From the IMG/VR virus record IMGVR_UViG_3300028241_000164: a stretch of DNA of 37,591 nt; one strand, written 5' to 3'. Below, one piece after another: positions 1 to 37,591 of this stretch. Each line of letters opens with the position of its first letter. The first letter of the stretch is position 1. Under the pieces are notes generated by a model. The model searched no databases and was not told where the DNA came from. It saw nothing but the letters and a program-made list of their open reading frames with translations. Source of the stretch: a virus. A program made the position numbers and the translations under genes.

Positions 1-22
1 CATAAGCCGCCGCACGAGCCGC
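1..22. repeat. 22-bp terminal overlap identical to 37570..37591 (circular closure of the contig)
   Basis: cataagccgccgcacgagccgc is present at both window ends. A minus-strand ORF stays in frame across the join. Confidence 0.9.
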
Positions 23-481
23 CGCACGAGCCGCACGAGCCTCCGCCGCACGAGCCGCATCATTAGCCGCAATTGCGTTATCATCCGTCGGATTTTGCAA
101 CCACGCCTCTGCCGCGACGATTGCGTTGCGCGGGTACTTATCATCGGGATAACGCGTCTCAAAAATATGGATTACCTTTTCGGCGCAAAAAATCGCAAGC
201 GCAACACTGTCTAATTTTCTCCACCTGTACGCCTTGACGATTTTCATTGTGCGGTGTGCAGATTTGTCGCTTTGCGTGTCGCAGTCACCGCTGCCCTCAC
301 AGATTGCCAAAACTTCGCCATTGACATAATTCAGCGCGTCAAGCGGTGTGTCCGAGGCGTGGTAACCGTTGCGGCAGCACTCAATCTTGCCTTTGACGCT
401 GTACTTTTTGCCGACTTTCCATTCCTGTGTGCCGTACTCAGATACGATTTTTCCATTGACTTCCCTCAAAAATTTATACAT
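1..481 (-). CDS. DUF7666-like + Imm5-like alanine-repeat protein, 5' part (the ORF runs off the window start and resumes at 37591)
   Basis: ATG at 481 follows RBS GGGGAGAAAGGGG, and there is no stop down to position 1. The N-terminus EWKVGKKYSVKGKIECCRNGYHASDTPLDALNYV matches my memory of the DUF7666 pattern (G..y..g.i..C..GfHa...pld.l.Y). The segment LAIFCAEKVIHIFETRYPDDKYPRNAIVAAEAWL followed by AAxAA repeats matches Imm5-like putative immunity proteins. Confidence 0.7.
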   Translation of the reverse strand, partial: MYKFLREVNGKIVSEYGTQEWKVGKKYSVKGKIECCRNGYHASDTPLDALNYVNGEVLAICEGSGDCDTQSDKSAHRTMKIVKAYRWRKLDSVALAIFCAEKVIHIFETRYPDDKYPRNAIVAAEAWLQNPTDDNAIAANDAARAAEARAARAAARAAAY

Positions 482-3682: not shown

Positions 3683-3836
3683 AACGGGACATACTCTCTG
3701 TATTATTTTTATCTGCGTATTTATACCCGCTGTATATATTTTTTCCAACATAAAGGTCAATTTGCACCCTATCGGTGTATAATCCAAACGCCCACGGAAG
3801 GGGCAGCCGTGAGCGTAAGGGAGGGAAGGGGCCATG

Positions 3837-3974
3837 TTACGGCCTTTTGGGTTTTTTCACTTTGTATTGAGGCGGGACTTCCAGTTTGCCGTTCGGGGGC
3901 TTCATACCCGGCTTCACCGGCATAATCTTGCGCTTGCCCGCCGTGGCAAATGGCTTCGTTGGGTTCTTCATCAT
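3837..3974 (-). CDS. small Lys/Pro-rich basic protein (45 aa), first gene of the leftward operon
   Basis: Inside track ORF 3837..4028. Only the ATG at 3974 has an RBS (GTGAGGGA, 7 nt upstream). Protein: MMKNPTKPFATAGKRKIMPVKPGMKPPNGKLEVPPQYKVKKPKRP. Confidence 0.5.
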   Translation of the reverse strand: MMKNPTKPFATAGKRKIMPVKPGMKPPNGKLEVPPQYKVKKPKRP

Positions 3975-4103
3975 TTTGCTGTCCCTCACTTTTGTCATTT
4001 TTTGTATGTTAATGAACATATTGTTCAATATCTGTTCAGGTAGTCTTGCTCCATAGGCATCACCATCCCCATTGTCGTCGCTGTTATAGTTCAGGCCGAT
4101 ATA

Positions 4104-4132
4104 ATCATATCAAATTGAAATGCAAAAATCAA
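4104..4132 (-). promoter_or_regulatory. leftward promoter (TTGATT-17-TATGAT with extended -10 TG)
   Basis: Minus strand reads CCGCTTGATTTTTGCATTTCAATTTGATATGAT. It is homologous to the rightward promoter at 4497..4525. Confidence 0.65.
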
Positions 4133-4225
4133 GCGGTTTTTCAAATTTTTTCAAATAAAAGCGCAAAGAAAGAAAGAACCAAAGAAAGAAATAATGTATC
4201 TCGTAATCTCTATTTACAGACTTTA

Positions 4226-4435
4226 TATATTATCTAGTTGTAGGCTAGTTGTAGGCTTATTGTAAAGCTAGTTGTAGGCTAGTTGAGAACGAGTTGAATA
4301 AAATATAATAATAATAAATATAAATTAAAATATATTATCTAGTTGTAGGCTAGTTGTAGGCTTATTGTAAGGCTAGTTGTAGGCTAGTTGAGAACGAGTT
4401 GAATAAAATATAATAATAATAAATATAAATTAAAA
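4226..4435. repeat. 2 x 105-bp tandem duplication; each copy has six 11-bp phased CTAGTTGTAGG-type units plus a ~40-bp pure A/T tract
   Basis: Copy 1 (4226..4330) and copy 2 (4331..4435) differ at one base (4266 a versus 4371 g). Unit starts in copy 1 are 4234, 4245, 4256, 4268, 4279 and 4290. Confidence 0.95.
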
Positions 4436-4496
4436 TAAATAAATATATAATACATATATGCACCGAAAAATAATCTGCAATTATCCGTAAAACCGC

Positions 4497-4525
4497 TTGA
4501 CATTGCCATTTCAAATCGCTATAAT
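4497..4525 (+). promoter_or_regulatory. consensus sigma70 promoter (TTGACA-17-TATAAT) for the rightward late operon
   Basis: TTGACA at 4497..4502, 17-nt spacer, TATAAT at 4520..4525. The terS RBS GGGGGTGA follows. Confidence 0.75.
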
Positions 4526-4547
4526 TGTCTTGAATGGGGGTGACTAT

Positions 4548-4967
4548 ATGGGTAAACAAGGCAAACTTGTAAAGCGCGGCCCTGATGGCATCTCAAAGGA
4601 GTGCCACAAGCAATTCCTTTGGCAGCCGGAAGAACTCAACGATATAATTGACAATTTCAAAGAGTGGTGCGAAGCCTACGACAAGGCAATATGCGTACCC
4701 TCTCTTTGCGAATATCTCAAAATCAGCAAAAGAACCCTGAACGCATATCTTGACATTCCCGAATACCGCGATATTATCGACCGGGCCTATGCGGTTATTG
4801 AATCCGACATAATTTCCAAAGCAATGAAAGGGCAGCAGCGCGAGATTATGTCTATTTTCGTGCTGAAATCCCTCCACGATTACCGTGACACCCAAAAAGT
4901 TGAAATGGATAACAAGATTGTCCTTACCTACGACGCTGATGTTTCGGAAATTATGGAGGAATTGTAA
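4548..4967 (+). CDS. terS: terminase small subunit
   Basis: HTH-like PSLCEYLKISKRTLNAYL followed by the IFVLKSLHDYRDTQ motif (compare iF.LKn..gy.Dkqe of small terminases). Start at ATG 4548 with an RBS. Confidence 0.75.
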   Translation: MGKQGKLVKRGPDGISKECHKQFLWQPEELNDIIDNFKEWCEAYDKAICVPSLCEYLKISKRTLNAYLDIPEYRDIIDRAYAVIESDIISKAMKGQQREIMSIFVLKSLHDYRDTQKVEMDNKIVLTYDADVSEIMEEL

Positions 4968-7900
4968 TTGGAAAGACCGTTCACCATAACCGTTAGTTCC
5001 ACAGGTGCCGTTACGCCTACCGTTATCCCCAAGGCAGGGGTTTCCGGTGAGCATAACGCCACCACGCTGAACTATTCCCTTGCGATTCCCGAAACGGGGA
5101 TTTATAAATACAACATCGAAATCCAAAGCGGCCTCGGTGAAGCCTATCTTTCGGAGTTTATCACTCCGTCCGACGGTGCAACCCGCGTCGTTTCGTTTTC
5201 CATTCCTTCCGCAATTACCCGTATGGGCGCTGCGGACTTTTGCCTTATCGAAACCAAGGTTGACGCACTCGGTGAAATCATTTCCATCACCAAAAGCGCG
5301 ATGACACGCTGTATCTTCACCGCTTCCCCCAATTCTCTTGATGACCTTGAAACATCTTATTCCGGCTTGCTGCAAGGACTTCTTTCCGACGTGGAAAACA
5401 TCTATGATGCCATTGAGGAAATGATTGCCAATGCCGGGCTGTACTTCAACCGCCCGAACTTCATCTTTGACACGCTTGCGGAAGCCCTTGCCTATACCGG
5501 CGACGGCTATATCATAGGCTCCACTGTTCAGACACGCGGCTACTATGTGGCCGGAGATAACGGCGGCGCTTTGTACGAAATCAAGGCCAATGACACGCCT
5601 GATGGCATCTTTTCCTACGAAATCAACAATGACCTTATGCTCTCGATTATCATTGAGAACAACGAGGTTCGCGTAGACCAACTCGGGGCCAAGAAAGACG
5701 CGGTTCATAACGAACCCACAGCCGGCGACCTTGCGACACTTTCTGATTACTTCACTTATTGCGACGCTGAACTCGCGTTGAACGCTTCTGCCTTTGACGG
5801 GAACGCAGCCATCATCGAAGCGGCCCTGCTTGAAGTCGGCAAGGTGACATTCACCCCCGGCGAAGTCTACCCGATTACCAATCTCCATACAACCTATGCG
5901 ATTGATGTGCCGTCCAACGTTACGATTGACGGCTGCGGAGCATACCTGAAACATATTTCGAAAGCGCACTATAACACGTTTTATATCAGCGTCAAAAACA
6001 ACGTTGTTATCAAGAATATCAACTTTATCGGTACAGTTTATGACTACACGTCGGCTGCCGAAAATAAAGCGATTAAAATGGTCAACTGCTCCAACATTAC
6101 GATTGACCGCGTTCGCATTATTGACTACGTAGAAGGAATCAAAACGCAGCAATCTTCGGGTTCTATTACAGACGAAACCCTATGCAATACCGGCATATCA
6201 ATTACCGATTGCCGCATTGAGCGCGTCATTCAGGGTTGGCAAGCGAACGCACTTATCAACTCGACAATTTCAAATCTCTATATTTCCTGCAAAATCAACG
6301 AACTTGTCGGGCAGAACGACGAGAGTTTAGAGGCCCCAATTTACTCCTACGGGGTTGGGAACCATTGTATCTATGCCGGTTCCCATATCCGAAACTGTCA
6401 ATTCAGCAACCTTGTGCTGCGCGACGCATATCGAGGAAGTGCGTTCAAGAGAGAATACGCTTCCACACCCTCCGATGAATCGGGAAATATCTCTATGGCA
6501 AACTTCTCGATTTATAACTGCCGTACCGCCATCTACCTTGGCAACGCGACGGACGGATGCACCATCACCAACGTCACGGCCTATAAGGTTCGGGTTGGAA
6601 TCCTTCTGTCATTTTGCAAAAATATCACGATTGACAACTGCGTATTCACGACCTACAAGGAGGATGACCTGCCGACCACGGAAATCAACGGAACCAATTA
6701 TCCAATTCCATTTGACAGAATCGGCGGACAAATCAATTACTATGCCTGTATGGCCTTGGGCGCGTCGGAGAACGTTAAGGTTTCCAACTGCCTGTTTGAT
6801 ACACACCATTGTTTGATTTACAAGATTGACCCTACACCTGAAACCCTGTACGTCTATGCGACGCACGACAAGACCTCCGATGACTATTCCTCAATATGGG
6901 CTGACGGAAATGCAAGCCAATGGACGCTTACTTCGCAGATAGCCGGAAGGCTTACCTTCACAAGGTATTGGAGGAACCTTCCCGATATGCCCGCGACGGG
7001 AACCCTGACGCACGTCAGCGGCGCTACCAATACGGGGAATATTACCTATACCGATGTTGACATCATAAGGCCGCATACGGTTGAAGATATTCAGTTCTTT
7101 AACTGCGATTTCAGGCTTGAAAAAGTCTATAACAATTCTATCACAGCCGGACTTCTCCCCTTTGCCGGAACCTATATCACGGACAAACTTTTGTTCGACG
7201 GCTGCCGGTTCTTCATCGAAGGATTCGGAGCATATCCCCTTGCCGGCGACTTCATTACTCCGAAAACCACAGGTGAAATGGCGACGGAACTCTCCGCGCT
7301 TTCTACTGCTGACAGGTACTCCTTCCTATTCTTCTTTGGAAATAACACAGCCAACAGGGAGCGGGACTACTTTACATCGTTTAAGAACTGCCGGTTCGAG
7401 AGTGCCGTTGAAATCAACAGCGTGTTCGTTGACTATGCAAGGCGGACATCACTTCATTTGAAGGTCGAAAATTGCACACTGAAAGGATTCCGCCTGATTG
7501 CGAGGCGTTCAACGCAGGCGGGTGTTCCGCGCAGCGATACCTACGATGCGCAAAAGAACCCCGCGTTCTCAACTTATCCTACTAACTTTGAGGCCCATTC
7601 GATTTATATGGATTCCCTTGACCGGTTCCTTTCGTCCGGGAATATCTATGAGGACTACTCCGGCCTTCGTCCGTATCAGTTCGCTGAAAGTTACGGAATA
7701 AGCAATCTGCCGGTCTACAATGACATCACCATCAACGCTGTTAGTTTGCGTCCGGGAGCATCCCCGCCTTCTTTCGTTGAGTTCGTGACTGGGATATATC
7801 AGATTGCTTTTGTCAATGGAAACACGGATATTGTTTATGGCAGTTTTGAAATCCCACACGGATATAAAGAGGGTACTGATTTAGAGGTTCATATTCATTG

Positions 7901-8213
7901 GTCGCCGTCGTCTACCGATACGGGCAACTGCGTTTTCAACTTTGACTACACCATTGCCAATATGGGAACGGGTGTGTTCGGCGCGGCAGCGCAGAAAACC
8001 CTAACGGCTGCCGGTTCGGGTGTTGCTTTGCAGCACCAATACGCTACGGGCAATACCGCCATTGACGGTGACGATATAAAAATCGGTGACGTTATCGTGT
8101 TCGCATTGTCACGTCCTGCCGGTGACGCATTTACAGGCGATGCATTTCTACATTCTATCGGCCTACATTATGAGTGCGACACGCTTGGAAGCCGCGCTCC
8201 GTCGCAGAAATGA
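4968..8213 (+). CDS. tailspike / tail fibre with right-handed beta-helix (pectate-lyase-like) depolymerase domain (1081 aa)
   Basis: TTG start, 8 nt after GGAGG. Repeated beta-helix rungs (NNVVIKNINFIGT, CSNITIDRVRIID, ISITDCRIERV, CQFSNLVLRD, CTITNVTAY, NITIDNCVF, VKVSNCLF). Confidence 0.75.
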   Translation: MERPFTITVSSTGAVTPTVIPKAGVSGEHNATTLNYSLAIPETGIYKYNIEIQSGLGEAYLSEFITPSDGATRVVSFSIPSAITRMGAADFCLIETKVDALGEIISITKSAMTRCIFTASPNSLDDLETSYSGLLQGLLSDVENIYDAIEEMIANAGLYFNRPNFIFDTLAEALAYTGDGYIIGSTVQTRGYYVAGDNGGALYEIKANDTPDGIFSYEINNDLMLSIIIENNEVRVDQLGAKKDAVHNEPTAGDLATLSDYFTYCDAELALNASAFDGNAAIIEAALLEVGKVTFTPGEVYPITNLHTTYAIDVPSNVTIDGCGAYLKHISKAHYNTFYISVKNNVVIKNINFIGTVYDYTSAAENKAIKMVNCSNITIDRVRIIDYVEGIKTQQSSGSITDETLCNTGISITDCRIERVIQGWQANALINSTISNLYISCKINELVGQNDESLEAPIYSYGVGNHCIYAGSHIRNCQFSNLVLRDAYRGSAFKREYASTPSDESGNISMANFSIYNCRTAIYLGNATDGCTITNVTAYKVRVGILLSFCKNITIDNCVFTTYKEDDLPTTEINGTNYPIPFDRIGGQINYYACMALGASENVKVSNCLFDTHHCLIYKIDPTPETLYVYATHDKTSDDYSSIWADGNASQWTLTSQIAGRLTFTRYWRNLPDMPATGTLTHVSGATNTGNITYTDVDIIRPHTVEDIQFFNCDFRLEKVYNNSITAGLLPFAGTYITDKLLFDGCRFFIEGFGAYPLAGDFITPKTTGEMATELSALSTADRYSFLFFFGNNTANRERDYFTSFKNCRFESAVEINSVFVDYARRTSLHLKVENCTLKGFRLIARRSTQAGVPRSDTYDAQKNPAFSTYPTNFEAHSIYMDSLDRFLSSGNIYEDYSGLRPYQFAESYGISNLPVYNDITINAVSLRPGASPPSFVEFVTGIYQIAFVNGNTDIVYGSFEIPHGYKEGTDLEVHIHWSPSSTDTGNCVFNFDYTIANMGTGVFGAAAQKTLTAAGSGVALQHQYATGNTAIDGDDIKIGDVIVFALSRPAGDAFTGDAFLHSIGLHYECDTLGSRAPSQK

Positions 8214-8222
8214 GGTGAGATA

Positions 8223-8315
8223 ATGTTTGCGTATCTATTGTTCTTTTTAAGACAGACAGTCGACCTCGTTGGCTTTATTACTGCGTACTTCAACTACATC
8301 ATCATCGGAGGCTGA
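8223..8315 (+). CDS. small hydrophobic peptide (30 aa)
   Basis: ATG 8223 follows RBS GAGGTGAG. Protein: MFAYLLFFLRQTVDLVGFITAYFNYIIIGG. It is below the ORF-track size cutoff. Confidence 0.5.
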   Translation: MFAYLLFFLRQTVDLVGFITAYFNYIIIGG

Positions 8316-8319
8316 TAAA

Positions 8320-8613
8320 ATGGAAATCATCATCGCAATCATATCATCGACAGGAATCCTATCTATCGTATTCGCGGCCGGATTCAAGAGCATCCTGAAA
8401 CATATCAACGACGATAAAAAATGCAGGGAAGTGGCACAGGGCCTTTTAATTGACCTTTTGCTTGCCAGCATTGACCTTGGAGAAGCAAACGCCCTCGCGC
8501 TGCAAAGGGGCAAAGCAAACGGAGAGTGCGATGCAGCGCTGCAAAAGGCAAGGGAAGTTCGCAAGGAACACACGAAGTTCCTGAACGGAATCGCTATCCA
8601 ACGAATCTACTAA
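8320..8613 (+). CDS. single-pass membrane protein, holin-like (97 aa)
   Basis: ATG 8320 follows RBS GGAGG. N-terminal TMD EIIIAIISSTGILSIVFAAGF followed by a charged helical tail. Confidence 0.5.
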   Translation: MEIIIAIISSTGILSIVFAAGFKSILKHINDDKKCREVAQGLLIDLLLASIDLGEANALALQRGKANGECDAALQKAREVRKEHTKFLNGIAIQRIY

Positions 8614-8626
8614 AAAGGGGTAACAA

Positions 8627-9430
8627 ATGAAGGTATCTACCGTTGAATTATCCGCAGACTTCAAGGAAATCATCATCTTGGCAATAGGCGACCTCCACGA
8701 AGGCGACAGATTATCAGACGGAACGCTCCTGAAAGACAGGCTGAACTTCATTAAGAAAACCGACAACTGTTTTGTAATGCTCCTTGGCGACCTGATTGAC
8801 AACGCACAACCCGACAGCCCCGGAAAGAACTCCGCTTGGTATGGGCGTCCGCACGAACAAATGGAATATATGGCTGAAACCCTGCTTCCGATTAAAGATA
8901 AGATTATTGGAGCGGTAGACGGGAACCACGAAGCGAGAACGGCGAAACACGGATTTGACATCACGGCCGTTATGCTTGGAAAAGTCGGAGTACCCCTGAC
9001 GAGATACAGCCCGGATGGACTCTATACATTCCTGAACTTCGGGCAGGAAACTCGTCCCGACAACAAAGGCGGAAGGAGAAAAATCCCGTATCAGATTTAT
9101 ATGAACCACGGAACAGGCGGCGGAAAGACAGCCGGAGGAAAGGTGAACCCGCTTTATGGGATGAAGGATATTGTCGCGGCAGACTTATACATCAGGGGAC
9201 ATACGCATCTTCCGGCAGGACTTCCGGGAATTGTCTTACAGCCCGATTGCAGAAACCACACCATCATCGAAAAGCCCGTATTCTATATCTCTGTTGCTTC
9301 ATCCTGCAAGTATGGCGGCTATGGTGAAACAGGTTCCTACACTCCATTGAGCAACGCCACGCCTTATGTTTACCTGTGCGGAACACGAAAGGCAATGGAC
9401 ATCGACTACGGCGTTCGCCGGACATTTTAA
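8627..9430 (+). CDS. calcineurin-like metallophosphoesterase
   Basis: Full motif set: GDLHEG, LLGDLID, DGNHE, NHGTGGG, GHTH. Confidence 0.85.
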   Translation: MKVSTVELSADFKEIIILAIGDLHEGDRLSDGTLLKDRLNFIKKTDNCFVMLLGDLIDNAQPDSPGKNSAWYGRPHEQMEYMAETLLPIKDKIIGAVDGNHEARTAKHGFDITAVMLGKVGVPLTRYSPDGLYTFLNFGQETRPDNKGGRRKIPYQIYMNHGTGGGKTAGGKVNPLYGMKDIVAADLYIRGHTHLPAGLPGIVLQPDCRNHTIIEKPVFYISVASSCKYGGYGETGSYTPLSNATPYVYLCGTRKAMDIDYGVRRTF

Positions 9431-9445
9431 GAAAGGGCAATTAAA

Positions 9446-9865
9446 ATGGGAAAAGATTTTGAGGAACACAAAGCAGTCTTTGAATCGAAGAACAGGACAT
9501 TCGGAGAAGGCACCGCAAACAGGAACCCAGAAGAAGGCAAACTTGATTACGAAGGATTCTTTAACCCGCTTGTCTTGGAAGCGTATGCGAAGTATATGCA
9601 CAAGAATCGGTACTTGGCAGACGGAACCATTCGCGACAGCGACAACTGGCAGAAACTCTTTGGCGAGAACCACGTCGCCGTATGCACGAAGTCCCTGCTG
9701 CGGCACACAATGGAGGTATGGAAGTACAACCGCGGATGTACCACAGACATCGAGGAGGCCCTCGGCGGCGTTCTGTTCAATGCGATGGCGATATGGCTGT
9801 CCATCATCAAGAAAGACCTTGACAATGATGTACTTATTGATTCGCCGATAGAGCGTGAAGGTTAA
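9446..9865 (+). CDS. MazG-related dATP/dGTP diphosphohydrolase-like protein
   Basis: The pattern G.ANRNPEEGKLDY..F.P..LEAYAKY...NW.K......KSLLRH......EEALGGVLFNAMAI resembles the dGTP_diPhyd_N/MazG-like family as I remember it. Confidence 0.5.
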   Translation: MGKDFEEHKAVFESKNRTFGEGTANRNPEEGKLDYEGFFNPLVLEAYAKYMHKNRYLADGTIRDSDNWQKLFGENHVAVCTKSLLRHTMEVWKYNRGCTTDIEEALGGVLFNAMAIWLSIIKKDLDNDVLIDSPIEREG

Positions 9866-9909
9866 GCAAGTTCTTACAAAATATTGGATAACTGAAAGGG
9901 AGTATCAAA

Positions 9910-10125
9910 ATGAACTGGAAAAAGAAACTCGCGAGCCGTAAGTTTTGGGCCATGGTCACGGGCGTCGTCCTTTGCGTATGCGTCATCTTCGGCGTGAAGG
10001 ATGTTACCACCGAGCAGATTATTGCCCTCGTCACGGCAATCGGAACCCTCGTTGCGTACATTTTCAGCGAAGCCTCCGTGGACAAGAAAAACATTGATTG
10101 CGCTTGCAAGAAAGGCACAGAATGA
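9910..10125 (+). CDS. holin (two TMDs, SRKFW-type N-terminus)
   Basis: MNWKKKLASRKFWAMVTGVVLCVCVIFG plus a second TMD IIALVTAIGTLVAYIF. Its stop overlaps the endolysin start (ATGA). Confidence 0.75.
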   Translation: MNWKKKLASRKFWAMVTGVVLCVCVIFGVKDVTTEQIIALVTAIGTLVAYIFSEASVDKKNIDCACKKGTE

Positions 10126-10793
10126 AACTACCCATTATGCACCCGGTTGTTAAGGTTCCATGCAAACTTACACAGCCGTATTCGAAAGACCATCCCGCTG
10201 TTGACTATTCTTACAGCGGTGCTTATCGCGGAAAACTGCGCGCCCCATTCCCCGGCGTTGTCGTTGTAGCCAAGGCTACCAATACCACGGCTGGAACCGT
10301 TTTGATTATCAAGGGTACGGGCCTGTATGTCGGCCTGTATTGGTTTGATTATCACATTGATACCCTGTATGTCAAGGTAGGTCAGACGGTAAAAGCAGGG
10401 CAAACGGTGGCCCTTATCGGATTCACCGGATACTGTATCCCTGCAAACAAAAATGGTTCCCATCTTCATTTCGGGATTTGTTCTAAACTTCTTGACACGA
10501 AGTTCCCGAATAAGTCTACCTGTTATAACCCGGAAGGCGAAAAGTTCAAGATTTATACCGACCTTGACGCTTACACCAAAGCAGTTGCAGCCATACAGAC
10601 CAACGAAAAGACAAGCGTCAAAATCATCGTGGATTGGTTGTATATTCGCAAAGGCCCCGGAACCGTTTACAAGCACATTGACAAGGCGCTGAAAGGCGAG
10701 GAATACTTCATCTTTGAGAAAAACGGAACGTGGGGAAGAATCGGAACGAACCGGTGGATAAGCATTAAGGGCAAATATGTAAAGTGGGTGTGA
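10122..10793 (+). CDS. endolysin: M23 (LytM) peptidase with C-terminal SH3-like wall-binding domain
   Basis: HPAVDY, a beta-rich core, GSHLHF, and the C-terminal WLYIRKGPGTVYKHI...GTWGRI. Start set to ATG 10122. Confidence 0.8.
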   Translation: MKLPIMHPVVKVPCKLTQPYSKDHPAVDYSYSGAYRGKLRAPFPGVVVVAKATNTTAGTVLIIKGTGLYVGLYWFDYHIDTLYVKVGQTVKAGQTVALIGFTGYCIPANKNGSHLHFGICSKLLDTKFPNKSTCYNPEGEKFKIYTDLDAYTKAVAAIQTNEKTSVKIIVDWLYIRKGPGTVYKHIDKALKGEEYFIFEKNGTWGRIGTNRWISIKGKYVKWV

Positions 10794-10841
10794 CCTCTGA
10801 ACATCGTCATTGATAAACCCCAACCGAAGCAGCGTGAGTTT

Positions 10842-12152
10842 ATGCTCCACAAAGAGATGTTTGTCGGATATGGTGGGGCAAAAGGCGGAGGCAAGTCACA
10901 CGCATTAAGAACCGTAATTATAATGCTTTGCGCGAAATACGAGAATCTATCGGCGGTTCTTATCCGGCGTACCTATGACGAGGTAAAGTCAAATCAAATC
11001 CAATACATCGAACAGATGTTAAAGGATGCGATGACAGGGGAGAACAGAATCAAGCACAATGCACAAGACCATATCTTCTATTTCCCGAATGGTTCCCGGT
11101 TAAAATATACCTATTGCAGTTCCACCAAAGACCTTCAACAATTCCAAGGAATGTCCTATGACATCATCGGCCTTGACGAGGCTACGCAGTTTGAGTACGA
11201 AGTCTTTACGGCCCTTGCGGCCTGTTTAAGAGGTTCCCCTGAACTCCCCAAGCGTATGTATATCACTTGCAACCCCGGCGGTATAGGACACGAATGGGTT
11301 AAGAGATTGTTCATCGACCGGGATTTTCGTGAAGGTGAAAATCCAAACGACTTCGCGTTCGTACAAGCGTTGGCGAGCGACAACGTATTCAACGGCGAAC
11401 ACTATATGCGGACGCTCGATCTCTACGACGAACCGCTGCGCTCCGCATACCGTGACGGCAAATGGGATATATTCATCGGGCAGGCGTTCCCGCAATGGGA
11501 CGAGGAAGCAATCAGCGTTGACTTTTTCCAAATACCCGACCATTGGACGCTTTCAATGTCTATTGACTACGGATTTGACTGTTTCGCTCCAATATGGTAT
11601 GCTACCGATGAACAGGGTGTCGATTATATCCTGCGTGGAGCCGAGTACAAGGATTGCGTTGTCCGTGAAGCGGCAGAACATATCTTCCGCATCGAACACG
11701 ACCTCGGAATCACCGAACGAAGAATCAGAAGGTACGCGCCCCCCGACCTGTTCAGACGCTCAACGCAGACCGGAAAGACATCGGTGGATATGTTTGCCGA
11801 AAACGGATATACCTTTATGCCGTCAGACAATAACCGGGAAGCGGGATGGTTGGCCATCAGGCAAAGGCTCTCCGACGGTCAGTTGAAAATCATAAGAGGC
11901 GCAGCGCCGGAACTGAACAAGGCGATGAAAATTATACAGTATGTTTCAGGAAATCCGAATGACTGCGAAAAAACCCCGCACGACATCACCCACAGCCCCG
12001 ACGCATTGAGATACTATTGCGTAATGCGAAACAAGAAGGCGGTAGTTCCTGCGGTAGCCGTAAAGCGGGATAAGAGATACGCAAGGGCATTGGTTGAAAA
12101 CAAACATTATGGTTCGAGATTCCGTCCGGGCAACTACTTGAAAGGTTGGTAA
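10842..12152 (+). CDS. terL: terminase large subunit (the start may lie upstream, see finding)
   Basis: Walker A GGAKGGGKS and Walker B IIGLDEAT. C-terminal nuclease-like region. Followed by the portal gene. Confidence 0.9.
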   Translation: MLHKEMFVGYGGAKGGGKSHALRTVIIMLCAKYENLSAVLIRRTYDEVKSNQIQYIEQMLKDAMTGENRIKHNAQDHIFYFPNGSRLKYTYCSSTKDLQQFQGMSYDIIGLDEATQFEYEVFTALAACLRGSPELPKRMYITCNPGGIGHEWVKRLFIDRDFREGENPNDFAFVQALASDNVFNGEHYMRTLDLYDEPLRSAYRDGKWDIFIGQAFPQWDEEAISVDFFQIPDHWTLSMSIDYGFDCFAPIWYATDEQGVDYILRGAEYKDCVVREAAEHIFRIEHDLGITERRIRRYAPPDLFRRSTQTGKTSVDMFAENGYTFMPSDNNREAGWLAIRQRLSDGQLKIIRGAAPELNKAMKIIQYVSGNPNDCEKTPHDITHSPDALRYYCVMRNKKAVVPAVAVKRDKRYARALVENKHYGSRFRPGNYLKGW

Positions 12153-31758: not shown

Positions 31759-32153
31759 TTATCCCCGCAATGAATGGCAAGACGATGCCTAAAAAGGTTG
31801 CCTATTCATCAGATGAACGGAAGCCGCTTGTCATTGCCGTTGACTTCGATGGTACGCTATGCGAGAACGCTTGGCCCGTCATTGGCGCTCCTAAACGTGA
31901 GATGATTCGCCTGATGATTGCTCGGAAGCGTATGGGTGACAAGATTGTTCTTTGGACGTGCCGGGAAGATGAATCGCTTGACTTTGCCGTTCAATGGTGT
32001 GCCTCCCACGGCCTGTACTTCGACGCGGTGAACGCGAATCTTCCGGAGGAACAGGAGAAATGGCAATCGAATCCCCGTAAAATCGGAGCGGACATTTACA
32101 TCGACGACAAGGGGTTAAATCCGCAGAACATTCCTGAATGGTGGTTTGACTGA
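31755..32153 (+). CDS. HAD-superfamily phosphatase (DxDGT type)
   Basis: Motif I VDFDGTL, motif II LWTCR, motifs III/IV RKIGADIYIDDKG. The start (TTG 31755 or ATG 31770) is uncertain. Confidence 0.7.
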   Translation: MIIPAMNGKTMPKKVAYSSDERKPLVIAVDFDGTLCENAWPVIGAPKREMIRLMIARKRMGDKIVLWTCREDESLDFAVQWCASHGLYFDAVNANLPEEQEKWQSNPRKIGADIYIDDKGLNPQNIPEWWFD

Positions 32154-32166
32154 AAAGGAGCAGACA

Positions 32167-32775
32167 ATGTTACAAAGCGGCTTTTACAACATGGATTGCA
32201 TGGACGGTATGGCACAATTTCCCGATAAGTATTTTGAGTTGGCGATTGTTGACCCGCCGTATGGGTTGGAACGTTTTAAGCATGGCGGTTCAGTTATAAA
32301 CAAATATGGCGATGAAAACGGGGAATGGAATAACACAAAGCCCACAAAAGAATATTTCGATGAATTATTTAGAGTATCTCAATGCCAAATAATATGGGGC
32401 GCGAATAATTTTCAGCTTCCACCTACGGAATATTTTGTGATTTGGGATAAGTTGAACCCTGTTGATTTTAGTTTTGCAATGTGCGAAATGGCATGGACGA
32501 ACTGCAGGAAACCGGCAAAAATATATCAATGCAATTCAATGCAATTAGACCGAATTCACCCGACACAAAAGCCCGTTAAACTCTACGAATGGCTACTAAT
32601 GAACTACGCAAAACAAGGCGACAAAATCCTTGACACACACGTTGGTTCTGCATCCTCGCTGATTGCCTGCCACAATATGGGCTTTGAATATTGGGGTTTT
32701 GAATTAGACGAGGACTATTACAAAGCGGCAAGCGAACGGCTCGAAGCAGTAAAGGCACAATTAAAATTATGGTGA
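32167..32775 (+). CDS. DNA N6-adenine-type methyltransferase (MTase 3), paralog of 2890..3564 with a different central region
   Basis: Its N-terminal region (FYNMDCMDGMAQFPDKYFELAIVDPPYG) and its C-terminal region match MTase 2. Start at ATG 32167 after AAGGAG. Confidence 0.9.
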   Translation: MLQSGFYNMDCMDGMAQFPDKYFELAIVDPPYGLERFKHGGSVINKYGDENGEWNNTKPTKEYFDELFRVSQCQIIWGANNFQLPPTEYFVIWDKLNPVDFSFAMCEMAWTNCRKPAKIYQCNSMQLDRIHPTQKPVKLYEWLLMNYAKQGDKILDTHVGSASSLIACHNMGFEYWGFELDEDYYKAASERLEAVKAQLKLW

Positions 32776-32790
32776 AAGGAAACGGACGAA

Positions 32791-33120
32791 ATGATTTGGT
32801 TTTACTGTTCATCTTGCGGAGCGCAGGGGCAGATGAGCGGCGGGAATACGTGTCCGAACTGCTCCGGTGCCATAATCGAAATGGGAAGGTTCCCGGAGCG
32901 TGAAAAGGAAGTCGAGGCAAAGTTTTGCGCTGCCCTTATAGAAGAACTGATGAAACATAAAGTAGAAGTATGGGTTGAAGAAGCCTTTCATAATGGTATA
33001 GAAAATGCCGATAAGGTAACATACAAGGAGGGCTATATCATTAGTGCGCTGATACATAAACTTCAAGACATTGGCCCGCAGTACCTTGCGTTGCTTGAAA
33101 GGGGTGGCAAGAGTGAGTGA
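32791..33120 (+). CDS. hypothetical protein with N-terminal zinc ribbon
   Basis: CSSC-N10-CPNC at the N-terminus. Confidence 0.6.
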   Translation: MIWFYCSSCGAQGQMSGGNTCPNCSGAIIEMGRFPEREKEVEAKFCAALIEELMKHKVEVWVEEAFHNGIENADKVTYKEGYIISALIHKLQDIGPQYLALLERGGKSE

Positions 33121-33319
33121 CCTTACGGATGCGGCCTTTAACAGAATGGAAAAAGCAGAACGCTCAAAGGCCGAGGCCATACCGCCAAAGGAATGTGGGT
33201 ATTCCTGCGACTGCAACGATTGCAACGAGGCGTATCTATGCCAAGAGAAGTGGAACTATGACTACGAGTGCGATGCGGATTGTAGGTACTGCAACAACGA
33301 TGATTGCAAAAACAGGTGA
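33113..33319 (+). CDS. Cys-rich small protein (68 aa, 10 Cys in the last 42 residues)
   Basis: GTG 33113 follows AAAGGGGTGG. C-terminal ECGYSCDCNDCNEAYLCQEKWNYDYECDADCRYCNNDDC. Confidence 0.5.
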   Translation: MSDLTDAAFNRMEKAERSKAEAIPPKECGYSCDCNDCNEAYLCQEKWNYDYECDADCRYCNNDDCKNR

Positions 33320-33369
33320 CATTCTCAAAATCGGCATTTTGCGAAACTCATGAAAGAAGGGAAAAGACA

Positions 33370-34113
33370 ATGAACAAGACAAAAATCGACTGGGCCGACA
33401 GCACTTGGAACCCTGTTACCGGGTGTCTGAACGATTGCCCATACTGCTATGCGAAAAAGATTTCCACAAGGTTTGATGCACATTTTTTTGCTGATAAACC
33501 AAAGGTTCTTAAATTCCCTATGCGTTCAAATCAAGGAATTATATATCCATATCCCTATGGCTTTACGCCGACTTTTCACAGATACCGCCTTGACGAACCC
33601 GCACAAAAGAAAAAGCCACAGAATATCTTCGTTTGCTCAATGGCTGATTTGTTCGGGGACTGGGTGCCGATAAGTTGGATTAAGGATGTGCTGACCGCTT
33701 GTTACAAAGCACCGTGGCACAATTACCTATTCCTGACGAAAAACCCGCAGCGCCTCATTGACATGGGAAAGCAAGGACTACTCCCCGCCAAAGAGAACTA
33801 CTGGTACGGAACGACCATCACGGACGACGCGACGCCGTTCTTCTATTCCGAAGCGCACAACTGCTTTTTATCAATCGAGCCACTGATGGGCGCGTTCGGA
33901 GAGGACGGAAAACTGCCGCCCGCCATCAAATGGGTAATCATCGGCGCAGAAACAGGAAACCGCAAAGGCAAGGTTATTCCCCAAAAGGAATGGATTGAGA
34001 GCATTGTTGATGTCTGCCGCGATTTTGGAACGCCTGTGTTTATGAAAGAATCACTGCGTGAACTGATGGGCGACGATTCTAAACAGGAGTTTCCGGAGGG
34101 GCTGAAACGATGA
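33370..34113 (+). CDS. DUF5131 (phage Gp37/Gp68) family protein with CX3CX2C motif
   Basis: TKIDWADSTWNPVTGCLNDCPYCYAKK is the family N-terminal signature. Start at ATG 33370 with an RBS. Confidence 0.75.
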   Translation: MNKTKIDWADSTWNPVTGCLNDCPYCYAKKISTRFDAHFFADKPKVLKFPMRSNQGIIYPYPYGFTPTFHRYRLDEPAQKKKPQNIFVCSMADLFGDWVPISWIKDVLTACYKAPWHNYLFLTKNPQRLIDMGKQGLLPAKENYWYGTTITDDATPFFYSEAHNCFLSIEPLMGAFGEDGKLPPAIKWVIIGAETGNRKGKVIPQKEWIESIVDVCRDFGTPVFMKESLRELMGDDSKQEFPEGLKR

Positions 34114-34430
34114 ATCACAATCATCGGCATTTGATGAAGTGGGAAATGAAAAAGAATTATAAGAAATACTACAAGCGCATGGACAGGCTTGCATCGACCA
34201 TGAAAAAAGAGGGTATCGACGTTTTCTTTCTCTCCTCGCGGAGCGTTGACGAGAAACGAGCGGAGCAGAAGCGTGTGGCAAACATCCATCCAGAGGCACT
34301 TCTGAACGCTGTTGCAAGCGCGATGGTTGATATGGCGCGAAATGGCGGTGTCGATGTGAGGGCTGTGCTTGATGTGTTGTCGGGTAAGGTGTTGTCGCGG
34401 ACGACGGGGGACGAAAATGCTTCTCAATGA
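34110..34430 (+). CDS. hypothetical protein (106 aa)
   Basis: ATGA overlap with the upstream gene. It precedes the loader gene. Confidence 0.55.
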   Translation: MNHNHRHLMKWEMKKNYKKYYKRMDRLASTMKKEGIDVFFLSSRSVDEKRAEQKRVANIHPEALLNAVASAMVDMARNGGVDVRAVLDVLSGKVLSRTTGDENASQ

Positions 34431-35151
34431 GGTGAACACCACCGTTTATTGCGACACTTGCCATAAGCCGAAGTGCGTTGCTGTCGATGGAGTGCCCGGA
34501 AAACTTCCTGTTATGTGCGACTGCGAGGCACAGGCGTATGCAAAGCGTCAGCAGGAGCAGAACGAGCGCCGCCGTTTGCAGGGGATAAGGGCGAGGATAG
34601 AATCGGGCATACCGGCGGGCAAGTACAGGCAGTACACCTTCGCCAAGGACGACAGGGCGAATCCGACAGCCTCCGATGCCGTTAAAAAATACGTTGACGA
34701 GTGGCCGGAGAACCTCCGAGCGGGGAAGGGCTTGTTACTTTGCGGCGGTGTCGGAAGCGGTAAAACCTTCCTTGCGGTGGCCGCTGCAAATGAGATTGTC
34801 AAGCAGTCGTCCGTCTATGTATCGGAATTGTCTACCCTTGCGCGGGACGCGGGAGATTTTAACAAGGATATGGACAGAATCATCGAGAATGTAGGCTTGC
34901 TTGTCATAGACGACATTGGCGTTGAGCGGTCATCGGAGTATGTGATGGAAAATGCCTATGCTATTATCAACGGGCGGTACAAGACAGGCTTGCCGGTCAT
35001 TTGCACAACGAACTTGACGCCGAGGGAATTGGTTATCAGCGGCACAAGCGTGAAGGCACGAATCTATGACAGGATATTGGAAATGTGTGGAACGACAATC
35101 GTGGTTGACACGAAGGTGAGCCGCAGGATAAAGAATAGGGGGAAAGCATGA
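34417..35151 (+). CDS. DnaC/IstB-like AAA+ helicase loader with N-terminal Cys cluster
   Basis: Walker A GGVGSGKT and Walker B LLVIDDIG. N-terminal CDTC...CDC. Start set to ATG 34417. Confidence 0.8.
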   Translation: MLLNEVNTTVYCDTCHKPKCVAVDGVPGKLPVMCDCEAQAYAKRQQEQNERRRLQGIRARIESGIPAGKYRQYTFAKDDRANPTASDAVKKYVDEWPENLRAGKGLLLCGGVGSGKTFLAVAAANEIVKQSSVYVSELSTLARDAGDFNKDMDRIIENVGLLVIDDIGVERSSEYVMENAYAIINGRYKTGLPVICTTNLTPRELVISGTSVKARIYDRILEMCGTTIVVDTKVSRRIKNRGKA

Positions 35152-37362: not shown

Positions 37363-37451
37363 TCCGTTATTCTTTTCTCAAATATTCCCATCAGGAACAA
37401 CGCGACTGTAAGACCAACGAACCAAGCGCAAGTTATTTGCGGTTGAGTCAT
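37335..37451 (-). CDS. small membrane protein (38 aa)
   Basis: ATG 37451 overlaps the stop of the junction gene (ATGA). TMD ITCAWFVGLTVALFLMGIF. Confidence 0.45.
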   Translation of the reverse strand: MTQPQITCAWFVGLTVALFLMGIFEKRITDWLGGGRKR

Positions 37452-37591
37452 CTTATTTCCTCCAATTCGGCAATGCGCTCAATCATCCATGCGTTGATTT
37501 TGTCTTTCATATCCGCATAATCCGCCGCATGAGCCGCATCATTCGCCACATAAGCCGCCGCATCAGCCGCATAAGCCGCCGCACGAGCCGC
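37448..37591 (-). CDS. 3' part of the junction-spanning DUF7666-like/Imm5-like gene (continues from 1..481)
   Basis: 47 codons in frame from the window end, AARAAAYAADAAAYVANDAAHAADYADMKDKINAWMIERIAELEEIR, then TGA at 37450..37448. Confidence 0.7.
   Translation of the reverse strand, partial: AARAAAYAADAAAYVANDAAHAADYADMKDKINAWMIERIAELEEIR
37570..37591. repeat. 22-bp terminal overlap, second copy (identical to 1..22)
   Basis: Identical to 1..22. Confidence 0.9.

Follow-up and report, generated by a model that had tools for sequence, protein, structure and literature searches.

A hypervariable cassette of helically phased 11-bp repeats upstream of terS in an uncultured phage clade resembles a fast-changing protein-docking site

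The viral genome IMGVR_UViG_3300028241_000164 (37,591 nucleotides; this whole stretch of DNA is referred to below as the window) carries, directly upstream of the small terminase gene terS, a tandemly duplicated block of phased 11-bp units and pure A/T tracts at positions 4226-4435. Comparing this block with its counterparts in related metagenomic phages showed it to be one version of a cis-acting cassette that is hypervariable and specific to its clade, the duplication in the window being one among several copy-number alleles. Judged by its pattern of conservation, the array looks like a fast-changing protein-docking site. As its reader we tentatively propose the small terminase subunit (TerS) encoded immediately to the right.

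The block is made of two 105-bp copies (4226-4330 and 4331-4435) with a single mismatch, A at 4266 versus G at 4371. Tandem Repeats Finder reported 4225-4437 with a period of 105, 2.0 copies, 99% matches and a score of 419, and a second repeat search paired 4225-4329 with 4330-4434 at 99% identity. Within each copy, Tandem Repeats Finder also detected an 11-bp array with the consensus CTAGTTGTAGG (4.6 copies). The units of a copy read CTAGTTGTAGG twice, CTTATTGTAA[A/G]G, CTAGTTGTAGG, CTAGTTGAGAA and CGAGTTGAATA, and can alternatively be read as three super-units of 22-23 bp (Tandem Repeats Finder period 23). An earlier note on this DNA, which had described a near-perfect duplication of 2 x 105 bp with one differing base, six phased 11- to 12-bp units per copy and an A/T-only stretch of about 40 bp after each array, was thus borne out on all three counts, with 2 x 6 units located and A/T runs of 42 and 51 bp. 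Because all six exact occurrences of CTAGTTGTAGG in the 37.6-kb window fall inside the block and a position weight matrix derived from every allele's units found no second unit cluster elsewhere in the genome, the clustering of the units is not due to chance. The parts of the block are as follows.

4226-4330: copy 1 of the 105-bp module, with the lead-in ATATATTAT, six phased units and an A/T tract; derived A at 4266
4234, 4245, 4256 (12 bp), 4268, 4279, 4290: starts of the copy 1 units, which are 11/12 bp long and head-to-tail
4331-4435: second copy of the 105-bp module; G at 4371 (ancestral), shared with the single-copy alleles of L026/L028 and with L010
4339, 4350, 4361, 4373, 4384, 4395: starts of the copy 2 units, equal to the copy 1 starts plus 105
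Junction of copy 1 and copy 2: sequence AAATTAAAATATATTATCTAG
4297-4338: pure A/T run of 42 bp, separating the two unit arrays
4283-4312: promoter-like site TTGAGA-18-AATAAT (10/12), overlapping the 42-bp A/T run
4402-4452: pure A/T run of 51 bp, the least stable duplex of the genome

The two A/T runs are the longest in the genome, the next one measuring 17 bp, and they form its least stable windows of 40 to 200 bp, more than 5 standard deviations below the mean at 40 bp. The right part of the 51-bp run, AATTAAATAAATATAT[A/C]ATACATATAT, is kept in most alleles.

The window represents a complete circular genome of 37.6 kb, with a terminal overlap of 22 bp and a gene that crosses the junction. 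Genes between about 35.8 kb and 3974, across the junction, are on the minus strand and those between 4548 and about 35.6 kb on the plus strand, which places the block at the point where the two transcription arms diverge. In line with the earlier description of a block between divergent promoters, about 60 bp upstream of the terS promoter, its end lies 62 bp from the -35 element of the rightward promoter (PR). In single-copy alleles the array is central between PR and the leftward promoter (PL), about 100 bp from each -35. A 54-nt inverted repeat indicates that the two divergent promoters and the A-tract elements upstream of them are inverted copies of each other. The array is transcribed from neither promoter, and the searches for Rfam matches and tRNAs returned none; an RNA-based explanation of the array was rejected. 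The surroundings of the block contain the following elements.

4497-4525, plus strand: PR, TTGACA-17-TATAAT, sigma-70-type (12/12), driving terS and the late operon
4132-4104, minus strand: PL, TTGATT-17-TATGAT with an upstream TG, driving a small lysine/proline-rich (K/P-rich) protein gene
4103-4156: left arm of the inverted repeat (54 nt), 72% complementary to the right arm and covering the PL side
4473-4526: right arm of the inverted repeat (54 nt), covering PR and its upstream A-tract element
4165-4210, plus strand: polypurine tract (AAAG)n..AACC..(AAAG)n, then ATAATGTATCTCGTA
4050-4089, plus strand: unit-like motifs in the PL leader, TCCATAGGC at 4050-4058 and GTTATAG at 4083-4089

No DNA relative or close protein relative was found in INPHARED, IMG/VR or GTDB genomes. 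Distant TerS proteins (28-30% identical) came from Clostridium and Alteromonas phages, where terS and terL, the large terminase gene, are adjacent, and were uninformative. Protein and exact-sequence look-ups yielded 15 informative contigs from anaerobic-digester and wastewater metagenomes, including the source of the window (L019, JGI 3300041002). All 15 share a common module, in which a K/P-type gene, PL, the polypurine tract with ATAATGTATCTCGTA, the 11-bp array, the A/T tract, PR and terS follow one another. The cassette within this module is hypervariable: nine alleles with five to six unit-sequence types were distinguished, and the comparison of copy number among related phages that the earlier note had suggested revealed that some alleles are longer by additional modules (+69, +105 and at least 2 x 69 bp).

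Allele A1 (L026, L028): anchor-to-anchor 164 bp; one copy of the window's units
Allele A, 2 x 105 (window/L019): anchor-to-anchor 269 bp; two complete modules
Allele A plus one 69-bp partial module (L010): anchor-to-anchor 233 bp; full array and partial module
Allele with at least three 69-bp modules (L020): contig begins within the array; repeated partial modules
Allele B (L001, L024): anchor-to-anchor 170 bp; main unit TCATTATAAAC
Allele C (L004, L008, L009): anchor-to-anchor 170 bp; main unit TCGTTATAGGC
Allele C variant (L029): different right anchor sequence; like C, with unit 3 locally changed
Allele D (L003, L005, L006, L007): anchor-to-anchor 167 bp; main unit TTGTTATAGGC
Allele E (L027): anchor-to-anchor 163 bp; left half B-like, right half A-like

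This series dates the duplication. Single-copy alleles with the window's units stand beside an identical TerS in L026 and L028, and since these A1 alleles carry G, copy 1 must have acquired its G-to-A change after duplication. Together with a difference of only 3.6% at the synonymous sites of terS between the window and L026, the presence of the copy 2 G in A1 shows that the duplication is recent. The very recent duplication put forward in the earlier note therefore accounts for the near identity of the copies, and the ongoing homogenisation offered beside it is superfluous. The same note had considered that relatives might lack the repeats entirely. This does not hold for the close relatives, all of which have the array, and holds for L013 and L015 (52-55% TerL identity), which share the divergent layout with a GP3-type terS first and have no tandem array upstream.

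Immediately left of the lead-in ATATATTAT, about 20 bp (4204-4225 in the window; also L024, L026 and L027) occur in at least four versions, ACCATAAACTTCA, ACCATAGACTTCA, ACTTACAAACTTC and ATTTACAGACTTT. These combine with the array types in mosaic fashion, suggesting that breakpoints of recombination recur at intervals of 10-20 bp around the array. Seven short-read contigs (L002, L006, L020, L021, L022, L023 and L025) end inside the array and A/T tract or no more than about 30 bp away, a behaviour that fits branching of the assembly graph at a polymorphic repeat and hints at several alleles in individual samples. On a larger scale, L010 carries a methyltransferase fragment, a 110-aa zinc-ribbon protein, an open reading frame (ORF) that begins like the DUF5131 gene and a DnaC-like loader on the minus strand at 1-1300, directly left of its K/P-rich gene; the same genes lie on the plus strand at 32146-35151 in the window. 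Phages with the same array type, A, are thus extensively rearranged relative to each other.

The array itself evolves quickly. Across the three main backgrounds, terS differs at a fraction of 0.42-0.585 of its synonymous sites (pS; corrected distance, dS, 0.6-1.1), and the p-distance of the array is 0.34-0.36. Divergence near the synonymous rate means that constraint on its sequence is weak. What persists is the arrangement: unit number stays at five to six, the anchor-to-anchor length of single-copy alleles at 163-170 bp, and no contracted allele was present among the nine. Unit positions T1, T4, T5, T7, A8 and C11 (core T..TT.TA..C) are conserved across alleles, unit order can be traced from one allele to another (ATT in unit 3, TTGAGA in unit 5, CGAGTT retained), and units within one allele are, by inspection, about 80-100% alike. 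Conserved phase, number and a short A/T-rich core fit the mark expected of a cooperative, weakly specific binder, and the pattern makes a purely neutral repeat less likely. The polypurine tract AAAGAAAGAAAGAACCAAAGAAAGAAATAATGTATCTCGTA showed no change in any allele or background (L001-L029), though synonymous sites of terS differ by 42-58%, and is constrained far more strongly than the array. Of the motifs in the PL leader, which are conserved in most relatives, TCCATAGGC at 4050-4058 is the sole exact copy in the genome and is identical to unit 1 of alleles C and D; both it and GTTATAG could be additional binding sites.

Intrinsic curvature was examined as a possible recognised feature, using two wedge models, which passed a sanity check on phased A-tracts and agreed with each other. 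The predicted curvature of the window's array was about the genome average and that of allele C about the 95th percentile, with differences between alleles, and the strong predicted bends (above the 99th percentile) coincided with the A-tract elements that immediately precede the two -35 hexamers. For the array, these predictions did not support recognition by curvature.

Comparison of alleles C and B (L004 256-318 versus L001 1710-1772, equivalent to about 4234-4300 in the window) revealed a strand-specific cluster of changes. All 16 differences over 170 aligned bases are G-to-A on the plus strand and fall within 63 bp; from C to B, 16 of 18 G's changed, the two unchanged ones lying in CGAGTT, and no C-to-T change occurred. 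The flanks are unchanged (80 bp left, 59 bp right), and the contigs are otherwise about 14% different with mixed substitution types. Since allele B is found in two assemblies and partly in E, the cluster is not a one-off error. It looks like deamination of minus-strand cytosines while single-stranded, and could equally come from a drive towards A/T. A left-to-right G-to-A gradient in allele E, considered as a footprint of resection, was dropped, because E is more simply a recombinant of B-like and A-like halves.

Which protein might read the array was approached through the neighbouring genes on the relatives' short contigs, where three DNA-binding candidates are encoded: TerS, the K/P-rich protein and a 60-aa XRE protein. 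Two of their genes flank the cassette.

4548-4967, plus strand: terS, Pfam GP3_package PF16677 at 44.3 bits (cut-off 29.4), matching PHROG terminase small subunit families
3837-3974, minus strand: gene of the K/P-rich basic protein (45 aa), the first and, it seems, only gene of the PL transcript in the window

None of the three proteins co-varies with array type. Contigs L024 (allele B), L026 (A1) and L027 (E) are identical in their terS DNA (420/420) and right flanks, whereas their array cores are 73-85% identical, and a single residue, which lies beyond the predicted helix-turn-helix (HTH), distinguishes TerS of the window from its counterpart in L001 (allele B). The K/P-rich protein is identical with A1 and E, B occurs with short and long forms of it, and allele D was found with two different basic proteins; XRE is identical with alleles B and D. 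Therefore, none of these candidates reads the variable positions of the array. For the pac site or TerS recognition array that the earlier note had listed among its readings, this contradicts a TerS that recognises the unit sequence, as identical TerS occurs with A, B and E, and only a low-specificity wrap of the SPP1/SF6 type would fit.

Such a wrap is the reading that we rank first, because no other DNA-binding protein accompanies the cassette in every case: terS is the first gene to its right and remains joined to it in 15/15 close relatives, despite the 6 kb that separate terS from terL (10842-12152). Loading of TerS at an SPP1/SF6-like pac site is nevertheless a tentative proposal. According to Greive et al. 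(PMC4737164), the HTH motifs of SPP1/SF6 TerS are about one helical turn apart, contact DNA weakly and independently of sequence and wrap about 100 bp, and SPP1 and SF6 have different boxA repeats even though the TerS of one can replace that of the other. By analogy, an oligomeric protein with several DNA-binding domains would make one weak, low-specificity contact per helical turn, all on one face of the DNA, and binding strength would come from the number and phase of the contacts and not from base identity. The binder would be TerS, and the cassette would serve as a pacL-like loading region at which packaging starts. We infer all three steps, namely binding by any protein, TerS as the binder and a terminase cut nearby. 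The six 11/12-bp units of the 105-bp module match one-turn spacing over about 100 bp, and the module would correspond to about one turn of DNA around a TerS ring. Identical TerS beside differing arrays and copy numbers is as expected of a low-specificity reader, and a circular contig with TerL, portal and TerS all of P22-like kind fits headful (pac) packaging.

Several points weigh against TerS loading. Most known pac sites are located within terS. The TerS found here is of the GP3_package (P22 gp3) type and not of the SPP1 G1P family, and the array, 150-320 bp ahead of the ATG of terS, ends about 100 bp before the -35 of PR, so that the promoter is not spanned. Array curvature is unremarkable in the window and variable between alleles, while the SF6 model selects bent DNA; a pure A/T run of 42-51 bp is more typical of an unwinding element than of pac; and the relatives with 52-55% TerL identity have the same layout without the array. 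In P22 itself, terS contains the pac site, and the HTH-like motif is reportedly occluded (PMC4737164).

The other candidate functions depend in part on which proteins the phage encodes. Pfam and PHROG scans of most ORFs, some of which stay unannotated, recognised no initiator, primase or helicase, and in the window no integrase, partition ATPase, ParM/ParA, ribbon-helix-helix (RHH) or winged-HTH (wHTH)/recombination directionality factor (RDF)-type regulator. The second or alternative replication origin suggested in the earlier note holds insofar as phased repeats do stand beside an A/T-rich element suited to unwinding. The units would then be iterons or loading sites for a phage or host initiator, and the A/T tract would be opened by supercoiling from the divergent promoters. 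This is rather unlikely. Besides the direct repeats adjoining the least stable DNA of the genome and the position at the exact divergence of the two arms, the 22-23-bp super-units, the DnaC-like replication module directly left of the cassette in L010, transcribed from the PL side, and the 16/16 G-to-A cluster, suggesting a minus strand that is at times exposed single-stranded, all speak for it. But only a DnaC-like loader and recombination proteins stand in place of a recognisable initiator, and iterons are normally read specifically, whereas these units drift at about the synonymous rate, hybrid arrays occur on locally identical backgrounds and three array types lie beside 420/420 identical terS DNA. 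DnaA boxes are at chance level, cumulative GC skew has no extreme at the cassette, distant relatives are without it, and a second, more classical candidate locus exists elsewhere in the window.

1167-1275 (repeats) and 1284-1343 (A/T-rich): second origin-like locus, with about five imperfect 21-22-bp direct repeats (ATGCCTTGCCTATTGA-like)

This locus lies inside a stretch of about 900 bp (860-1790) without a convincing ORF, and its A/T part is the third least stable in the genome. Next to it, a G+C-rich block of 360 bp (1340-1700) is near-identical to L001. Rfam had no match here, and the fold z-scores are only -1.5 and -1.7.

Promoter control, or an architectural role of the array, would invoke a small protein that polymerises head-to-tail on the units, spreads over the A/T tract and sets the output of PL and PR. 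The regulator may be the K/P-rich basic protein, which might recognise the TT(A/G)TA core through its A/T-rich minor groove, or an unrecognised Cox-, Apl- or ParR-like protein. An array centred between two mutually inverted promoters (about 100 bp from each -35 in single-copy alleles), analogues of the Apl and parC type with helical-turn direct repeats and 11-bp iteron sets, the conserved unit-like TCCATAGGC and GTTATAG in the PL leader, a K/P-rich gene that is first or among the first PL genes in all relatives and the tolerance of G-to-A changes would suit such a protein. We nonetheless regard this function as fairly improbable, given that the array overlaps neither promoter, that PR is a perfect consensus in need of no activator, that the scans found no RHH, wHTH/RDF, ParM, ParA or integrase, and that the K/P-rich protein, itself predicted from sequence, has no detectable family. 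Tolerated insertions of 69 and 105 bp between the promoters would also be odd for a spacing-dependent switch. The multi-site operator for the left/right choice proposed in the earlier note is possible in its placement of repeats between the promoters, and is weakened by the 60-100 bp to either -35 and by the failure to find an RHH- or RDF-type regulator. Less probable still is an array with no sequence-specific function, that is, a minisatellite prone to slippage and recombination of which only the spacer length and A/T content matter; as a spacer it may, for example, separate strong divergent promoters or absorb supercoils. Divergence near the synonymous rate (0.34-0.36 against a pS of 0.42-0.585) between invariant flanks, neighbouring proteins that do not co-vary with the array, polymorphic copy number (+69, +105, at least 2 x 69 bp) with hybrid alleles, the 16 of 18 G's that could become A in allele B and the lack of the array in more distant relatives all count in its favour. 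Against it, phase, unit number and positional orthology are kept over a dS of 0.6-1.1, conserved unit positions are common to all alleles with units about 80-100% alike within each, and length is held at 163-170 bp with no contraction in nine alleles, where slippage should delete as often as it duplicates. Very unlikely, finally, is a diversifying cis-element, an entry site for packaging or replication whose sequence is continually changed by the phage population. The changes would arise by recombination at the level of units, by tandem duplication and by bursts of cytosine deamination on one strand, and the invariant flanks would ensure that the cassette still works and can move from one background to another. 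The gain might be escape from satellites, decoy sites or defences that recognise the cassette, and the C-to-B change would be a kataegis-like footprint marking a single-stranded minus strand, as at a resected pac end or an opened origin.

In a low-confidence AlphaFold model (pLDDT 55), the predicted secondary structure of TerS follows the layout usual for such proteins, with an N-terminal HTH, long helices and a C-terminal beta-hairpin; a TerS profile matched no PDB sequence. Inside terS, the plus strand carries two strong promoter-like sites at 4619-4648 and 4750-4777, each with 11/12 matches. terL and the portal gene come only after a 6-kb insert (4968-10800). Its products are a beta-helix-like protein of 1081 aa, a metallophosphoesterase and an endolysin, alongside a small membrane-like ORF. 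Where TerS is identical (L020-L023), the beta-helix-like protein has a length of 803, 811 or at least 794 aa, and it looks like an exchangeable receptor-binding or depolymerase cassette. Other genes encode a Rad52-like annealing protein, SSB, a Mu Gam-like protein, RusA, the DnaC-like loader, three N6/N4 methyltransferases and the 60-aa XRE protein. On the PL side, the K/P-rich protein is confined to this clade: Pfam and PHROG detected no family, and homologues were found in two close relatives only. Terminator-like hairpins on both strands at 3789-3848, directly after its gene, indicate that the PL transcript in this genome seems limited to it; close by, GCCCACGG.AGGGGCA.CCGTGAGCG.AAGGGAGGG is conserved in L001 and L003. 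A small-RNA promoter suspected by eye at about 3763 was dropped, as it has a poor -35 and is absent from the promoter scan. Across the circular junction (37448-37591 and 1-481, minus strand), a 200-aa gene with the alanine-rich repeat ARAAEARAARAAARAAAYAADAAAY and weak matches to PHROG families of unknown function accounts for the tandem repeats found at either end of the window. The array-free distant relative L015 (GCA_045602905.1 contig, 39 kb; 52% TerL identity) carries an integrase, a LexA-like repressor (HTH_3 and Peptidase_S24) and an excisionase-like HTH_17 protein, as well as a diversity-generating retroelement (RVT_1 and bAvd). Its lysogeny-type genes indicate that the wider family includes temperate phages; the window is without an integrase.

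Phased direct repeats beside A/T-rich DNA are a known kind of protein-loading site. What is new is that an uncultured phage clade has a regular 11-bp array in this place, that the array varies in allele and copy number while the backgrounds are nearly identical, and that it comes with an unchanging polypurine flank and a mutation cluster on one strand. If the cassette is a loading site, it would provide a natural allelic series on how sites are chosen by the phase and number of weak contacts, while site choice by oligomeric DNA-binding proteins is usually studied in one or two model phages. Differing in unit sequence, G/C content and module number, the alleles would be ready-made substrates for binding, packaging and replication assays, and the polypurine flank and the one-strand G-to-A cluster are two further leads on the role of this DNA in vivo. 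If the array is merely a spacer, the finding is ordinary.

The loading, origin and promoter-control readings have counterparts among known systems. Origins that combine iterons with a DNA unwinding element (DUE) include lambda ori, those of iteron plasmids and the bind locus of pMV158 RepB with its 11-bp direct repeats. Like them, the cassette has phased direct repeats beside an easily melted A/T tract of about 40 bp, near active promoters; unlike them, its units are 11 bp and contiguous instead of 17-22 bp, they are not conserved among near-identical phages, and a cognate initiator gene was not found for the cassette. RDFs of the 186 Apl type act on direct repeats that lie between the main promoters at intervals of one helical turn (PMC7498355) and bind with low specificity, high cooperativity and spreading (PMC7498355; PMC3936717). 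The cassette shares with the arrays of 186 Apl, P2 Cox and lambda Xis five to seven helical-turn direct repeats between the main phage promoters, but its promoters are divergent and not face-to-face, its array is 60-100 bp away without overlap, and no integrase/RDF-like protein was found in the window. L015, a distant relative with no array, encodes both an integrase and an HTH_17 protein. R1 parC comprises two sets of five 11-bp iterons with 39 bp between them (PMC2241845), much as the window has two sets of six 11-bp-type units with about 38 bp of pure A/T between. The arrangement in two sets is, however, a derived state that occurs in this genome only, ParR/ParM were not found, and the spacer is pure A/T with only a weak 10/12 promoter-like match. 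From SPP1/SF6 pacL and boxA, the cassette differs by its regular head-to-tail series of 6 x 11 bp in place of box pairs, by a GP3_package TerS, by leaving promoter and gene start unspanned and by the lack of a strong predicted bend in the array, and no pacC or pacR equivalent was identified at the cassette. In common with these sites it has direct repeats upstream of terS beside a promoter, with about 100 bp engaged (PMC4737164), and the proposed docking would likewise involve contacts spaced by a helical turn, weak and sequence-independent, on repeats that vary between phages (PMC4737164).

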